Shown here: positions 16,898 through 26,087 of the stretch, piece by piece
How the letters are laid out: each line of letters opens with the position of its first letter
Numbering within the stretch: the stretch's first letter is position 1
Source: a virus
Taxonomy: Duplodnaviria > Heunggongvirae > Uroviricota > Caudoviricetes
Strand: one strand, 5' to 3'
DNA: 31,991 bases
Virus record (IMG/VR): IMGVR_UViG_2563366883_000019
Location: 1-31,991 of that record
The notes under the pieces: model-generated
What the model saw: only the letters and a program-made list of their open reading frames with translations
Database searches by the model: none
What the model was told of the DNA's origin: nothing
Made by a program: the position numbers and the translations under genes

Positions 16898-16903
16898 ATC
16901 CAA

Positions 16904-16929
16904 CAAGAAAGCCCCTCCGGAGAGGGGCT
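16904..16929 (-). terminator. Minus-strand hairpin terminator ending repeat copy A
   Basis: GCCCCTC-TCCG-GAGGGGC on the minus strand followed by TTTCTTGTT. Confidence 0.5.
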
Positions 16930-17136
16930 GGAGAGTAGCGCTATGTACCGTTCATGCATGGTGCAGGGTGCCTCCCGGTGAGTTCAGTATCAGCACCTGA
17001 ACCCGCACCAGAAAGGATAAGGGGTGTGACCAAACACCTGTCGCTGATATGCCCCTCCGCACAGGGGGATTCACCATGCCATATTTTTTTAACAAACTTC
17101 CCGCTGGCCAGACAATAATCGCCAGCCTGAATTGTG
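16904..17136 (-). repeat. Copy A of a diverged element of about 230 bp (candidate structured RNA) in the late leader
   Basis: Shares conserved 5' and 3' blocks with copy B; the central block differs; internal helices are retained by compensatory changes. Confidence 0.6.
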
Positions 17137-17387
17137 AGTAACGTGGCATTTTACGGGAAAACTGTTTTCTGCAGTAAAAAGGCCCGCCGGAGCGAGCCTG
17201 GAAGGATAGCGGTCATGTGATGCCGGTTTCCCGGTAACTCAGCATCGGTATCTGAGTCAACGTTTTCTCTACTGGGTCATTTCCGATACGTTCCGCCTTC
17301 CGGCAGACTTTCATCACGTCAGAAAATATAGCACCCTGAGTAACAGGACAGTACTCAGAATTCAGGAAACTGTGACACATCCTGCAC

Positions 17388-17412
17388 AGAAAAGCCCCTC
17401 CGGAGAGGGGCT
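17388..17412 (-). terminator. Minus-strand hairpin terminator ending repeat copy B
   Basis: Identical GCCCCTC/GAGGGGC hairpin followed by TTTTCTG on the minus strand. Confidence 0.5.
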
Positions 17413-17606
17413 GAAGTATAGCCTAATTTCTGTCTGTCGCATGGTGCCAGGTGCCTCCCGGTAAATTCAGCCTGGCTACTGAATTTGCATGTTCGCTGGA
17501 TCATACACTTTGCCAGATGCCCCGCCGCTGAGGGGGATTCACCACGCGATGCAATTTTTAACAAATTCTCCGGCAGCCAGACAATCATCAAGCTGTGGAA
17601 TTGTGA
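17388..17606 (-). repeat. Copy B of the same element
   Basis: Same conserved blocks as copy A; the overlapping ORFs in the two copies are not conserved at protein level. Confidence 0.6.
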
Positions 17607-21158: not shown

Positions 21159-21390
21159 GCTTTGTGTCCTACTTGATATTTTGATTTACCCCTTTTGAGA
21201 GGGTGACCGGGCGCTCAAAACCGCAAGTAGTCGGCGGGCATATTCCCATTGCTGGTATTGTATTAGCCGCACGCCCGGTCATAAACCAAGAAGACTGGAC
21301 ACAAAAAAACCGCATGTCTGTCGGGCGCGGTAACCGCTACTTGCTAAGGTGTTTTGAGCACCTGACGCAGAGTATCCGACAGAATGTGTG

Positions 21391-21426
21391 GTGTGTCAAC
21401 ATTTCCTTGTGTAGATGTTGACACCC
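21391..21426. promoter_or_regulatory. Perfect 10-bp inverted repeat (GTGTCAACAT-N12-ATGTTGACAC) carrying TTGACA hexamers in the divergent intergenic region
   Basis: Read directly from the sequence; lies 77 bp upstream of the DUF805 gene start and 230 bp upstream of the ORF6N gene start. Confidence 0.45.
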
Positions 21427-21502
21427 TATTAGGTAAAACATTAACGTTGTTTTAAATTGTTAATAATTATCAATTTAATATTAATGTTTGGAGTATAAAA
21501 GC

Positions 21503-21877
21503 ATGAGAAAATCCCCTTTGGCATGGTATACGGATGTTCTTTTTAATAACTACTTCAATTATTCAGGGCGAGCCAGTCGAAGAGAGTTCTGGTGGTATTA
21601 TCTGTTTAATTTAATATTCTTGGGAGTTCTTTTTTTTATCGGATATACATTAGATAATACTGGCATTAGTTATGGGTTTTATATACCTTGCGTTTACGTA
21701 TTAGCTACGATTATTCCATCCATTACATTGAAAGTCCGCAGACTCCATGATATTGGGTTAAGTGCTTGGTACTTGTTTATCTGGTGCATTCCGTATATTG
21801 GTGGCTTTATATTGTTCGTTATGTACTGTATCCCGTCAGAAAAAGGGGATAATAAATACGGTGCATATAGTATTTAA
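21503..21877 (+). CDS. DUF805-family inner-membrane protein (YhaH/YhaI-like, about 124 aa)
   Basis: RREFWWYY and RRLHDIGLSAW motifs with multiple TM segments; preferred ATG at 21503 has GGAG 9 nt upstream (the ORF track frame starts at 21488); low-GC region. Confidence 0.75.
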   Translation: MRKSPLAWYTDVLFNNYFNYSGRASRREFWWYYLFNLIFLGVLFFIGYTLDNTGISYGFYIPCVYVLATIIPSITLKVRRLHDIGLSAWYLFIWCIPYIGGFILFVMYCIPSEKGDNKYGAYSI

Positions 21878-21896
21878 TCCCCGCCAGATAGTCGCA

Positions 21897-22583
21897 TCAA
21901 AAAGTACTGGTTATCTTATCTATTAGATCAAATGTCTTCTCATCAATGTACCAGTACTTTTTATCATCATTTGGGTATTCAACGAAAACCGTCCATAAAA
22001 CCTCTTCCTTTTTAATGAAAGATAAAAGAAAAGTCTCTATATCCTTTGAATTGTCTTTGGGAATAACTGTAATAAATGAAGTCCATTTTTCCAACTTTTT
22101 ACTTTTTATCTGTTTGGCCTCCTTAGGTAGAAAAATTTTAGCATTTGATTCACGTTCCAGTCGGTCTAATAATTGTTTGGCATATATATCAACAGGAACA
22201 CTTATGTCACTTGCTTTATGACGTAATTCAATAGTTGGTGTATACTCGTTCGAAAAATAGAAAACACCATCACTGGGTGATGTTATCAGAGTCTTTTCTA
22301 AATATGTGTATTTGTATGTTATTGGATTAAACCAATAACAGTACCATTCTGGCTTTAATTGCCCGCTATAAGATGTGTTATTATTGTGAACCTTACACAC
22401 AGGATAAATGTTTTCTATATCAGTCCACTTACTTTTATCCTCTTTTTTTTGTGTGTCTATGACGTTTGAGGAGTGTTTTTGGTTGAACACTTGAATATTT
22501 AAAAAAACTAAAAGTATGTTTCCGATAATAGATGCAATAAGCATTTTCTTCAGTTTTGAGTTATCCATATGCATCCCCTTCAT
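21897..22583 (-). CDS. Low-GC hypothetical protein with N-terminal signal anchor (about 228 aa)
   Basis: Preferred ATG at 22583 overlaps the upstream gene's stop (ATGA); the ORF track frame starts at 22592 on TTG. N-terminal TM LIASIIGNILLVFL; Lys/Asn/Tyr-rich composition; no recognised domain. Confidence 0.6.
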   Translation of the reverse strand: MKGMHMDNSKLKKMLIASIIGNILLVFLNIQVFNQKHSSNVIDTQKKEDKSKWTDIENIYPVCKVHNNNTSYSGQLKPEWYCYWFNPITYKYTYLEKTLITSPSDGVFYFSNEYTPTIELRHKASDISVPVDIYAKQLLDRLERESNAKIFLPKEAKQIKSKKLEKWTSFITVIPKDNSKDIETFLLSFIKKEEVLWTVFVEYPNDDKKYWYIDEKTFDLIDKITSTF

Positions 22584-23056
22584 TGTGGACAATTACTCTT
22601 TGTCATAATTATAACTAAGTCATTATATTTCGTGTTTATTATGTTATAATGATATTTGAATATATAATTATACTCCTGCATCATTTTACACTCGCCAGAA
22701 TTTAATTTTTTTTGTATTTCTAGGCTCATTAAGTTTTTAATCTCTTCACCATCAAAAAATGGCGACATATCTTCATTAATCCCATAAATATTATAGTAAT
22801 GATTAAGTGTATTTCCTTCTACGGTTGCAGCAATCCATGTAGTATAATCATCTACTTTAATAGGGAATTTTTTCTTGGATAGTTCATTTTTTAAGTATGA
22901 GGCAATTTTATCTGCATCTTCTTTGTTCGATAAAATATCATCAATTTTATTATCACCGAACTCAGTTGCAATTATCTTTACAAAGATCAGCAGAATAATA
23001 AACATTAATGCTGTTCCTGTTTTTTTTATTGCTCCTAATATTTTGTTTCCTGTCAT
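22580..23056 (-). CDS. Low-GC hypothetical protein with N-terminal signal anchor (158 aa)
   Basis: N-terminal TM ALMFIILLIFVKIIA; translationally coupled to the downstream 228-aa ORF; a TTGACA -35-like hexamer lies upstream; no recognised domain. Confidence 0.6.
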   Translation of the reverse strand: MTGNKILGAIKKTGTALMFIILLIFVKIIATEFGDNKIDDILSNKEDADKIASYLKNELSKKKFPIKVDDYTTWIAATVEGNTLNHYYNIYGINEDMSPFFDGEEIKNLMSLEIQKKLNSGECKMMQEYNYIFKYHYNIINTKYNDLVIIMTKSNCPQ

Positions 23057-23233
23057 CTTGCAAATCTAACATAAAATTTAATGAGTCTTATTAATAAATT
23101 TAATTTCTTATGAGTTGTCAACCTTCCATCAAGCAAACCGTGATCTAACAGCATGACTGTCTGCTTGATATGTGTTGTCGTCAACACAGTACAGTCCTTG
23201 AATACATATAACAAATTTGTTATGTTGATACCT

Positions 23234-23563
23234 ATGAACTACACTATCGAATACTACAGTGAAGAGGTCCGGCTGGAAGTCGATCAGCTTCCATTGAGTA
23301 TGCGTGTCCGATACAAACATCTCATTGAACGTATGAAGGTATACGGCAGCAATCTCGGAGAACCTCATACCAGCGCCTTTGGTGATGGGCTTTTCGAACT
23401 CAGAATTAAAGGCAACGATGGGATTGCACGTGTTTTTTACTGCACTCTGACAGGGAAACGCATCATTATGCTGCATAGCTTCATTAAGAAAACGCAGAAA
23501 ACACCGCCAGCCGAACGCAAAAAAGCTGAAGCCAGAATGAAGGAGGTTAAGCATGACTGGTAA
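23234..23563 (+). CDS. Type II toxin, RelE/ParE superfamily, phage Gp49-like (HigB-type arrangement, 109 aa)
   Basis: Gp49-like motifs (GDGLFELRIKGNDGIARVFY...IIMLHSFIKKTQKTPPAE); 11-nt overlap with the downstream HTH gene; the ORF track frame starts further upstream at 23153. Confidence 0.8.
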   Translation: MNYTIEYYSEEVRLEVDQLPLSMRVRYKHLIERMKVYGSNLGEPHTSAFGDGLFELRIKGNDGIARVFYCTLTGKRIIMLHSFIKKTQKTPPAERKKAEARMKEVKHDW

Positions 23564-23861
23564 ACGCATTACACCTACCATGACACACGACGAAATGGCA
23601 GCCAAATGGATGGAGGATCCGGCTTTCAAAGCAGAATACGACGCCATCGCCGACGAGTTCGCACTGCTTGATGAAATGCTGGCAGCACGAAAAGAAGCTG
23701 GCTTAACCCAGGCTGAAGTTGCCGAACGTATGGGAACAAAAGCGACTGCGATCACCAGAATGGAAAGCAATCTTGCATCAGGTACAAGCGGCCCATCATT
23801 TGCCACACTGAAAAAATTCGCCCGTGCTACAGGGAAAAAACTCCAGATCCGCTTCGTTTAA
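23553..23861 (+). CDS. XRE-family HTH antitoxin (HigA-like, 102 aa)
   Basis: AGGAGG lies 6 nt upstream of the ATG; HTH motif LTQAEVAERMGTKATAITRME; toxin-first gene order. Confidence 0.8.
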   Translation: MTGKRITPTMTHDEMAAKWMEDPAFKAEYDAIADEFALLDEMLAARKEAGLTQAEVAERMGTKATAITRMESNLASGTSGPSFATLKKFARATGKKLQIRFV

Positions 23862-23915: not shown

Positions 23916-24161
23916 TCACCGGATTACCACATCCCACTCCGGCTCCTGCCATCTCAAATCCGGTGAATCATTTCTCTCAGGAATAACCATTACGTCCTTT
24001 TCCCTTCGCTCCCTTTCTATCGCCATCACAGCCAATGCTGCAACCATGATGTATTTTTGTTCGTCGGTTCCTGTTTCATAACGACGCATGAGGGTAAACT
24101 CGGGGCGATCAGTAACCTCAATGATTTCGTTAATTTCTTTAATTTCGCGAGGAATATCCAT
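23916..24161 (-). CDS. Hypothetical small acidic protein (81 aa); coding status uncertain
   Basis: ATG at 24161 with AGGAG 9 nt upstream; its start codon overlaps the start codon of the divergent plus-strand gene at the CATG palindrome 24159-24162. The ORF track frame extends to 24185. Confidence 0.35.
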   Translation of the reverse strand: MDIPREIKEINEIIEVTDRPEFTLMRRYETGTDEQKYIMVAALAVMAIERERREKDVMVIPERNDSPDLRWQEPEWDVVIR

Positions 24162-24834
24162 GGGTTTAGTCTCCTTTGATATCACATGCCCGCACTGTTT
24201 AAAAGAGCGAGCTGTTATTGAGGCATTTGCCGAAAAACAAATTGAAAAAACACCTTTTTTTAACGTCGCTTTTGTATGCAGAAGTTGTCATCGAGGAGGT
24301 GTTGCTATTGTTGAAATCCCATCAGACCACTATCACGGTCCCATGGCGGAAAGCCAGAAAAAAGACCTCGATATTCTGATTTCAGGAAATAGCCAGTACC
24401 GTTTCCGCAAGATCTATCCTGTGGTCAAAAAAATTACCGCACCAGAATATACACCCCCGGTTGCAGACCGTACTTTTGTTGAGGCAAAAGAGGATTTACA
24501 GAGGAGGCGGTACGACACAGTGGTTATTCTTTGTCGCAGAGTCCTCGATATCTCCACGAAAAAACTGCTCGGCGATGAAGCAGGAAAAGAATCGCTGTCG
24601 CAACGTATTCAGATGATTTACAAAAAAGGCCTGATCACTGAACAGATGAAGGAATGGGCTCATATTGTACGAATTGATGCCAATAAAGCAGTTCATACAG
24701 ATGAAGTTTTCACACCAATTGAGGCAAGCCAGATCCTGAGTTTTACCGAAATGTTTTTAGTCTACGCCTTCACTCTGCCTGCAATGGTGGAAGCCAGACG
24801 TGAACAAAAAAGATCAGATTCAGCCTCTATATGA
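24160..24834 (+). CDS. Zinc-ribbon protein with helical C-terminal domain (possibly DUF4145/HEPN-like, about 224 aa)
   Basis: ATG at 24160 with GAGG 7 nt upstream; CPHC...CRSC zinc-ribbon pair at the N-terminus; C-terminal region contains an R-x7-H segment (RIDANKAVH). Domain assignment is from memory and unverified. The ORF track frame starts at 24088. Confidence 0.6.
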   Translation: MGLVSFDITCPHCLKERAVIEAFAEKQIEKTPFFNVAFVCRSCHRGGVAIVEIPSDHYHGPMAESQKKDLDILISGNSQYRFRKIYPVVKKITAPEYTPPVADRTFVEAKEDLQRRRYDTVVILCRRVLDISTKKLLGDEAGKESLSQRIQMIYKKGLITEQMKEWAHIVRIDANKAVHTDEVFTPIEASQILSFTEMFLVYAFTLPAMVEARREQKRSDSASI

Positions 24835-25389: not shown

Positions 25390-25665
25390 GTGGCTTCTGT
25401 TTCTATCAGCTGTCCCTCCTGTTCAGCTACTGACGGGGTGGTGCGTAACGGCAAAAGCACCGCCGGACATCAGCGCTATCTCTGCTCTCACTGCCGTAAA
25501 ACATGGCAACTGCAGTTCACTTACACCGCTTCTCAACCCGGTACGCACCAGAAAATCATTGATATGGCCATGAATGGCGTTGGATGCCGGGCAACTGCCC
25601 GCATTATGGGCGTTGGCCTCAACACGATTTTACGTCACTTAAAAAACTCAGGCCGCAGTCGGTAA
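25390..25665 (+). CDS. insA: IS1 InsA (91 aa, GTG start)
   Basis: Identical in recognisable motifs to IS1 InsA ([43 protein letters not shown]...). Confidence 0.95.
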
Positions 25666-26087
25666 CCTCGCGCATACAGCCGGGCAGTGACGTCATCGTC
25701 TGCGCGGAAATGGACGAACAGTGGGGCTATGTCGGGGCTAAATCGCGCCAGCGCTGGCTGTTTTACGCGTATGACAGTCTCCGGAAGACGGTTGTTGCGC
25801 ACGTATTCGGTGAACGCACTATGGCGACGCTGGGGCGTCTTATGAGCCTGCTGTCACCCTTTGACGTGGTGATATGGATGACGGATGGCTGGCCGCTGTA
25901 TGAATCCCGCCTGAAGGGAAAGCTGCACGTAATCAGCAAGCGATATACGCAGCGAATTGAGCGGCATAACCTGAATCTGAGGCAGCACCTGGCACGGCTG
26001 GGACGGAAGTCGCTGTCGTTCTCAAAATCGGTGGAGCTGCATGACAAAGTCATCGGGCATTATCTGAACATAAAACACTATCAATAA
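25584..26087 (+). CDS. insB: IS1 InsB frame (expressed as InsAB' transposase by -1 frameshift)
   Basis: InsB motifs ([21 protein letters not shown]...[13 protein letters not shown]); TTAAAAAACTC slippery site at about 25640. Confidence 0.95.

Follow-up and report, generated by a model that had tools for sequence, protein, structure and literature searches.

The lytic phage T4 encodes two small superinfection-exclusion proteins, Imm and Sp, one of which is integral to the inner membrane and the other faces the periplasm via an N-terminal hydrophobic segment; both are products of AT-rich early genes and act at the envelope against the incoming phage. P22 SieA and HK97 gp15, like the proteins encoded by the Sie2009/Ltp-type genes in temperate phages of Gram-positive bacteria, are accessory prophage membrane proteins which block DNA entry, and they constitute single-gene systems located in moron or lysogeny-module positions. 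Here we compare with these systems an island of low G+C content (GC) in the IMG/VR virus record IMGVR_UViG_2563366883_000019 (Caudoviricetes), of which positions 1 to 31,991 were analysed; this whole stretch of 31,991 nucleotides (nt) is referred to as the window. The island comprises a gene for a DUF805 membrane protein and, convergent with it, two genes which we term A and B. The three genes represent a genuine, conserved and horizontally mobile cassette of enterobacterial lambdoid prophages, for which we tentatively propose, at a probability of roughly 35%, a function in superinfection exclusion at the inner membrane or in the periplasm.

Compared to T4 Imm and Sp the cassette proteins are similar in type and in their predicted placement at the envelope. 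However, they share neither sequence nor profile similarity with these proteins, are larger, contain cysteines and are accompanied by a DUF805 protein. A position like that of SieA, gp15 and the Sie2009/Ltp-type genes is shared by the DUF805 gene of Lactobacillus phage LBR48, which lies between the integrase and the repressor/ImmA genes, but there is no homology to these systems and the cassette is a conserved set of three genes, two of which run in the direction of the early operon. In the Pfam, PHROGs and NCBIfam scans no similarity was detected to the characterised superinfection-exclusion families (T4 Imm/Sp, P22 SieA/SieB, HK97 gp15, Cor/Llp). The prophage DUF805 protein has the same three hydrophobic segments and the same RRLHD motif as the chromosomally encoded YhaH and YhaI proteins of Escherichia coli, from which it differs in being prophage-borne, of low GC, rare and always paired with gene A.

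The island and its genes are located in the window as follows (ORF, open reading frame; aa, amino acids; TM, transmembrane):

21400..23200, no strand: low-GC island, GC of 0.31 versus 0.50 for the window.

21503..21877, plus strand: DUF805 inner-membrane protein of 124 aa with three predicted hydrophobic segments (PF05656, phrog_12855, hydropathy, RefSeq).

21897..22568, minus strand: gene B, 223 aa, with an N-terminal TM anchor and a periplasmic domain of about 190 aa, both predicted (ORF list, alignments, hydropathy, RefSeq).

22575..22580, minus strand: Shine-Dalgarno-like AAGGGG, 6 nt upstream of the conserved ATG of B (read from the sequence).

22580..23056, minus strand: gene A, 158 aa, with an N-terminal hydrophobic segment and a domain of about 125 aa (ORF list, hydropathy, alignments, RefSeq).

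The mean GC amounts to 0.314 in the island versus 0.502 in the whole window. In 400-nt windows it drops from 0.44-0.51 in the flanks to 0.27-0.34 across positions 21400 to 23200, approximately, and the island is the lowest 1.8-kb GC stretch of the window, the next lowest elsewhere having a GC of 0.468. The cassette of Salmonella is likewise low in GC (0.33 versus 0.48 for its locus). A preliminary description of the window had noted a sharp AT-rich drop over about 1.7 kb containing a DUF805 gene on the plus strand and, convergent with it, two minus-strand ORFs, each consisting of one N-terminal hydrophobic segment and a remainder rich in Lys, Asn and Tyr without a recognisable motif. This outline was borne out by the GC windows and the comparison with the next lowest stretch, by the PF05656 match, by the three ORFs being intact, by hydropathy and composition and by the lack of any Pfam, NCBIfam or PADLOC match for A and B. 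According to the hydropathy analysis the cassette is predicted to encode one polytopic and two single-pass or exported proteins.

Homologues of the cassette genes were found only in lambdoid prophages of E. coli, Shigella and Salmonella. The DUF805 gene, A and B each occur in exactly the same eight of 5,426 complete E. coli genomes, with a single, chromosomal copy of each per genome. Two Shiga toxin 1 (Stx1)-converting phages of Shigella, 75/02 Stx and POCJ13, carry the island at 99.5% identity but without an annotation of the DUF805 gene, and a literature search on the cassette ORFs of these two phages yielded nothing. A word-indexed search of 5.8 billion proteins using B, A and a profile of A as queries returned three clusters for B and two for A, all of them from E. 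coli. When 1.84 billion representatives were searched exhaustively by HMMER with the B profile, a single new family member came to light, a B homologue from Salmonella enterica (about 32% identity). Pattern and tblastn scans of the GTDB species genomes and of JGI metagenomes with both profiles found nothing, and in IMG/VR only one E. coli-type and one Salmonella-type contig were detected.

The order of A, B (where present) and the convergent DUF805 gene is kept in six distinct contexts, which are listed below with the loci designated by L numbers (TA, toxin-antitoxin; RM, restriction-modification; HTH, helix-turn-helix):

Context 1, window, 75/02 Stx, UCPROB-002 (L021) and L001: PR operon/nin region, flanked by the replication genes and ORF6N/NinB; upstream of A are a Gp49/RelE-like toxin and an HTH antitoxin.

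Context 2, L002 and L005-L012: PL side near the integrase, with the same Gp49/HTH TA family.

Context 3, L003: left of cI, adjoining an Eco57I/BsuBI-type RM system, with A directly convergent with the DUF805 gene and B missing.

Context 4, L025 and L026: left of cI, adjoining HicA/HicB.

Context 5, Salmonella L013 and L015: nin region, adjoining a ParE-type TA system.

Context 6, Salmonella L014 and L017: nin region, adjoining PIN/Phd.

In all six contexts A and B are co-oriented with the phage early operon (PL or PR), the DUF805 gene and the TA or RM neighbours are antisense to it, and an antirepressor-type gene (ORF6N, AntA or pRha) is located beyond the DUF805 gene. The absence of B in L003 is exact, the region corresponding to window positions 21883-22578 being replaced by about 66 nt with a GC-rich hairpin. 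The slot upstream of A (window 23153-23861, plus strand, and its equivalents in L003, L013, L014 and L025) contains one of four TA families or an RM system depending on the context and thus behaves like a variable defence/addiction hot spot. Five different TA or RM modules beside A are typical of the defence and moron hot spots of prophages. The C-terminus of the toxin upstream of A in the window also matches the PADLOC NsnC model (E 3.5e-10).

The expectation that A and B form a coupled pair proved only partly correct. The two genes are indeed linked, with a gap of 11 nt between them, but the unit appears to be the triad rather than the pair, as A is always convergent with the DUF805 gene and B is absent from one locus. 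The description of foreign-composition accessory genes in a prophage slot was confirmed by the low GC, the restriction to lambdoid prophages and the variable TA/RM neighbours. Homology to housekeeping or structural proteins was not found either, and the homologues co-occur and lie in mobile elements.

Sequence comparisons between the cassette copies revealed a mosaic structure. Between the window and the L002 allele the DNA identity is 98-100% for the DUF805 gene, 92-100% for A and about 92% for the TM segment of B, and only 43-72% for the B ectodomain. In two Salmonella prophages B and the DUF805 gene are 100% identical, A is 71% identical and the adjacent TA system is swapped. Recombination therefore exchanges parts of the cassette, and yet A stays beside the DUF805 gene. 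The ratios of nonsynonymous to synonymous substitutions (dN/dS), calculated by the Nei-Gojobori method, are 0.22-0.41 for A, 0.20-0.36 for B and 0.2-0.8 for the DUF805 gene, the highest DUF805 value stemming from two nearly identical sequences that have accumulated very few substitutions. Selection on the three genes is, by these values, purifying but relaxed. Aside from the frameshift in A noted below, the ORFs are intact in every copy.

The DUF805 protein covers the full domain (profile positions 1-111 of 111 of PF05656; E 1.7e-30, 106.1 bits versus a gathering score of 25.7), matches phrog_12855 (“membrane protein, moron”) and displays three peaks in the hydropathy plot. It shares 33-36% identity with YhaH and YhaI of E. 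coli K-12 including the GRxxRxE and RRLHD motifs and, judging by these similarities, is a paralogue of these proteins, which are encoded in the chromosomal yhaH-yhaI locus. The identity between the DUF805 proteins of the window and of Salmonella is 45%. The ATG at 21503 is preceded by GGAG 9 nt upstream and RefSeq calls the 124-aa form, which is why this start is considered more likely than the alternative TTG at 21488. In total, RefSeq annotates products of 124 aa (DUF805), 223 aa (B) and 158 aa (A) on near-identical E. coli genomes.

According to a study from 2025, resistance of E. coli TK001 to two myophages, PhiWec188 and PhiWec190, resulted from an in-frame deletion in yhaH (P66-A82, spanning the RRLHD motif), and complementation restored its phage sensitivity (PMC12548472). 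An inner-membrane protein of the DUF805 family can thus serve phages as a host factor during infection. Apart from this report little was found in the literature on DUF805. DUF805 genes are rare among phages (18 phage records). The annotated ones occupy positions typical of lysogen-expressed genes, namely the one described above for LBR48 and, in Lactococcus phage PLg-TB25, that of a lone antisense gene amid the early genes.

The hydrophobic segment of the gene A product spans approximately residues 14-31 and follows a Lys-rich N-terminus. By eye, the N-terminus consists of an n-region MTGNKILGAIKK and an h-region of about 14 aa followed by KIIA/TEF (KAVS/SDF in Salmonella), so the segment could be a signal peptide, possibly a cleavable one, or a signal anchor. 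In the remainder Lys, Asn, Tyr and Ile are abundant, a composition that AT-rich genes would be expected to produce. Outside the hydrophobic segment there are only two cysteines, C123 and C156, neither of which varies between E. coli and Salmonella. In Salmonella, the gene located upstream of B is genuinely homologous to A (30-32% identity) and has kept the motif FP[IL][KV]VD[DE]YTT along with the terminal Cys. In four of the eight cassette-bearing complete E. coli genomes a run of A7 replaces the A8 run at window positions 22706-22713, by which gene A is frameshifted. These genomes (EC2 and SW071611/19/3, the latter being three SW0716 clones) would encode a 117-aa product without either cysteine. 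The 1-nt deletion could represent a homopolymer sequencing error, decay or slippage-based switching.

In the gene B product the hydrophobic segment spans approximately residues 9-28. The polar residues S13, N17 and Q26 within it are conserved in the alignment, which hints at helix-helix contacts in the membrane. As in A, the remainder is rich in Lys, Asn, Tyr and Ile, which is expected for AT-rich genes. The sole two cysteines outside this segment, C58 and C77, are invariant from E. coli to Salmonella, between which the B proteins are colinear at about 32% identity (30-32% for A and B). Given that A and B each combine an N-terminal hydrophobic segment with two invariant cysteines, both proteins probably face the periplasm, and the Cys pairs are an indication of periplasmic disulfides.

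The preliminary description had assigned the second minus-strand protein about 228 aa and regarded the two genes as joined by an ATGA overlap. The overlap is present (ATG at 22583, TGA at 22582-22580) and starting from its ATG a B protein of 228 aa would result; the longest ORF form extends from 21897 to 22592 on the minus strand. However, the start common to all homologues is the ATG at 22568 (MDNSK/MNNSK/MNEQR), which lies 11 nt after the stop of A and yields a protein of 223 aa. In the second E. coli allele AAGGA precedes the B start and the in-frame ATGA is kept. In Salmonella A and B do not overlap, a 34-nt spacer with a G-rich Shine-Dalgarno site preceding the B start. Based on the conserved N-terminus and the Shine-Dalgarno site, the ATG at 22583 seems not to be the parsimonious start of B. 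Thus, the overlap itself stands for both E. coli alleles, but coupling via ATGA is unproven in view of the conserved start beyond the A stop and the lack of an overlap in Salmonella, and the length of 228 aa is replaced by 223 aa.

When the window proteins were scanned against Pfam, NCBIfam, PADLOC and PHROGs, and the diverged E. coli and Salmonella homologues against Pfam and PHROGs, no functional family could be assigned to A or B. The only PHROGs matches were phrog_19308 for A, which is made up of the same proteins, and phrog_21161 for B, which is its own family, both of unknown function. Profile searches of the PDB with the A and B families found nothing, and none of the three cassette proteins matched a model of PADLOC-DB v2 at E ≤ 0.1. 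An hhalign probability of 0.6% led us to reject A and B as paralogues. The AlphaFold2 models reached a predicted local distance difference test (pLDDT) score of 44 for A and 49 for B, the latter model being strand-rich. Neither the A model nor a search of BFVD yielded anything. The C-terminal domain of B, whose model is poor (pLDDT 49), was compared to the α+β roll of the NTF2-like or cystatin-like type that VirB8/TraE, VtrC and Tim21 (IMS domain) have as the periplasmic part of bitopic inner-membrane proteins.

A lipoprotein of the Cor/Llp type was rejected for both proteins since no Cys is located in or just after the hydrophobic segment of the E. coli A or B; the A protein of Salmonella has a C16, which lies outside a lipobox context ([LVI][ASTVI][GAS]C). 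A two-component spanin (Rz/Rz1-like) or lysis cassette was likewise dismissed, as there is no lipoprotein partner, the B model is strand-rich and the lysis genes are located about 8-10 kb away.

Two orphan families and a DUF805 paralogue in a fixed convergent order are not described in the sources searched, while prophage envelope accessory proteins as such are well known.

The signals that may govern the expression of A and B are located at both ends of the gene pair:

23057..23221, no strand: divergent intergenic region from gene A to the Gp49/RelE-like toxin gene, containing TTGACA.

21840..21882, minus strand: hairpin of 13 bp with a 2-nt bulge followed by UUUUU, a weak candidate terminator of A-B (-15.7 kcal/mol, z -1.4 versus shuffles).

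TTGACA is found at 23121-23116 on the minus strand, 60 nt upstream of the A start, and is conserved in the other E. coli alleles; it is also present 66 nt upstream of the Salmonella gene A. The homology of the cassette copies across contexts starts at TTGACA in Salmonella and about 35 nt upstream of it in E. coli. There is no acceptable -10 hexamer 16-18 nt downstream, the promoter scan does not call the site, and in this region the scan gave fewer promoter-like sites than in shuffled sequence. The claim that the pair has its own TTGACA-containing upstream region hence holds as far as the conserved hexamer is concerned, but does not extend to a promoter. The hairpin is located directly past the B stop, within the 3' end of the DUF805 ORF, and was not called in the terminator scan of the region. 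In L003 a GC-rich hairpin (CCCCGC...GCGGGG), with a T-run behind it on the DUF805 strand, lies in the 72-nt gap between A and the DUF805 gene (8478-8549) and looks like a DUF805 terminator that the B-containing versions lack.

The proposal that the cassette mediates superinfection exclusion is based on the predicted topology, on the defence and addiction neighbours, on the cassette being both rare and diversified as a mosaic, on where DUF805 genes lie in other phages and on the report on YhaH. The DUF805 gene would be transcribed against the early operon from its own promoter, and the protein would for this reason probably be made in the lysogen. Gene A may encode a small periplasmic protein, either exported or anchored, that contains a single disulfide, and gene B a bitopic inner-membrane protein with a periplasmic α+β domain that also contains one disulfide. 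The three proteins would block the genome entry of incoming phages, possibly by occupying or poisoning a DUF805-type host factor which these phages need, in a manner akin to the action of T4 Imm/Sp, P22 SieA and HK97 gp15. The periplasmic location, the disulfides, the cooperation of the three proteins, the timing of their expression and the exclusion function are what we infer. The preliminary description had already considered a superinfection-exclusion, immunity or defence module. The accessory, membrane-targeted and foreign-composition character that it relied on was recovered, but the defence-system models provided no support, since PADLOC gave no match.

If the cassette acts in exclusion, a three-protein system would join the short list of prophage entry blockers, and a testable handle would be gained on DUF805, a large family of bacterial membrane proteins of unknown function. 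As Stx1-converting phages of Shigella and E. coli carry the cassette, it could influence which phages superinfect toxigenic lysogens. In a more specific form, to which we assign a distinctly low probability, the prophage DUF805 protein together with A and B would replace or poison a host complex of YhaH and YhaI on which some phages depend for crossing the inner membrane. The widespread DUF805 family would thereby gain its first function, as a cofactor of phage DNA entry, and paralogue mimicry would constitute a new exclusion mechanism. The exchange of parts by recombination, which gave E. coli a diverged B ectodomain and Salmonella another A allele, would in that case be the trace of an arms race against tail or ejection proteins of the phages that try to enter.

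Several observations weigh against an exclusion function. The cassette proteins have no homology to any known exclusion or defence protein in the library and profile scans, no mechanism can be founded on the structure models of A and B in view of their poor quality, and the promoter of A-B is not convincing in the scan. The cassette is present in just 0.15% of the complete E. coli genomes. B is dispensable in one locus and A is frameshifted in half of the eight genomes, and at least part of the cassette is therefore not under strong selection everywhere. Moreover, the co-occurrence of adjacent genes may be simple linkage. Finally, A and B may serve the lytic cycle, rather than or besides being lysogen-expressed morons, because they are always co-oriented with the early operon.

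Following this last argument, A and B could be delayed-early envelope proteins of the lytic cycle that are read through from PL or PR after induction, for instance preventing re-adsorption to or superinfection of the infected cell or modulating the timing of lysis, and the DUF805 gene would be an unrelated neighbouring moron. This would account for the co-orientation of A-B with the early operon in six of six contexts and the antisense orientation of the DUF805 and TA/RM genes, for the lack of a convincing promoter of A-B for the absence of B from one locus and for the recombination breakpoints between the genes. However, A and the DUF805 gene are adjacent and convergent in every context, even without B and across 30-45% identity between E. 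coli and Salmonella, and TTGACA is found about 60-66 nt upstream of A in both genera, with the homology of the cassette starting at or just upstream of it. We consider this explanation doubtful, though not to the same degree as the remaining ones. A somewhat less probable function is that of a lysogenic-conversion or host-fitness module which, like Bor or Lom, alters the physiology of the envelope (stress tolerance, transport, colonisation). The proteins are predicted to be located in the membrane or periplasm, the foreign-composition island occupies accessory slots in prophages of enteric pathogens including the Stx1 phages 75/02 Stx and POCJ13, and DUF805, as a widespread chromosomal family of unknown function, need not be related to phages. 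On the other hand, the distribution of the cassette is very rare and patchy (8/5,426 genomes), its proteins evolve fast, recombination having brought a divergent ectodomain into B of E. coli and a divergent allele of A into Salmonella, and its neighbours are consistently TA or RM systems, all of which fits conflict genes better than physiology genes.

The constant neighbourhood of TA or RM modules and the small size of the membrane proteins would also suit a membrane-acting abortive-infection or addiction system, in which the DUF805 protein or B is a membrane-damaging effector restrained by the other components and freed upon infection or loss of the element; the convergent arrangement could even permit an antisense control of the DUF805 gene by read-through from the early operon. 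Such a system appears improbable, since the proteins bear no similarity to known membrane toxins of abortive-infection or TA systems, PADLOC gave no match, and the DUF805 paralogues are ordinary chromosomal genes in K-12. Furthermore, the natural variants without B or with a frameshifted A keep the DUF805 gene intact, which argues against A or B as an essential antidote. That A and B are chance ORFs or decaying remnants in AT-rich DNA might be suspected from the extremely few homologues, the genomes with a frameshifted A and the lack of any detected domain. It is nevertheless hardly credible considering that Salmonella has intact and colinear versions of the two ORFs at about 30% identity, that the cysteines, the TM features and the Shine-Dalgarno-preceded starts are conserved and that dN/dS amounts to 0.2-0.4.

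The surroundings of the cassette contain further elements. On the antirepressor side, a full-length match to RF02221 (Rfam sRNA-Xcc1, 79.6 bits) was detected at window positions 21197-21280 on the minus strand, directly upstream of the ORF6N antirepressor gene. The motif is also present at L003 9141-9224, at L005 116-204 and 9341-9429 and at L019 4898-4981. In other lambdoid and Stx prophages, whether or not they carry the cassette, it lies ahead of antirepressor genes of the AntA/AntB type; in the Salmonella loci it was not found. The element looks like a conserved leader of antirepressor genes and, being present also without the cassette, was rejected as a part of the island.

Beyond the TA pair, a gene at 24088-24834 (plus strand) is predicted to encode a DUF4145 protein (PF13643, E 4.9e-9; phrog_1305) with a weak match to the PADLOC PD-T7-4 model (E 0.0026). 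It overlaps head-to-head with a small ORF at 23916-24185 (minus strand; phrog_8371, function unknown) and may be another accessory or defence gene of the same islet. ORFs reading as InsA/InsB of IS1 were found at 25390-26087 (plus strand), after a DUF977-like gene. To their right the gene order departs from that of the replication genes in the near-identical UCPROB-002 prophage, and the window prophage therefore seems to be interrupted or rearranged by IS1.

In the cI-proximal contexts, a conserved stretch of about 0.5-0.9 kb without long ORFs is located upstream of gene A (L025 2080-3012 and L003 at approximately 7350-7950). About 500 nt of it are 90-99% identical in 186 phage records, mostly of Stx-converting phages, which are unannotated there. 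The stretch may be a leader, a nut region or an RNA.

Two full-length Rfam STnc100 matches (130 and 139 bits) are located at window positions 16899-17108 and 17384-17577 on the minus strand, between the region of the late-gene regulator and an esterase gene, where Stx phages carry stx. The gap containing the pair has no minus-strand ORF of at least 100 aa in the window, and the Salmonella loci have single STnc100 copies at the equivalent place.

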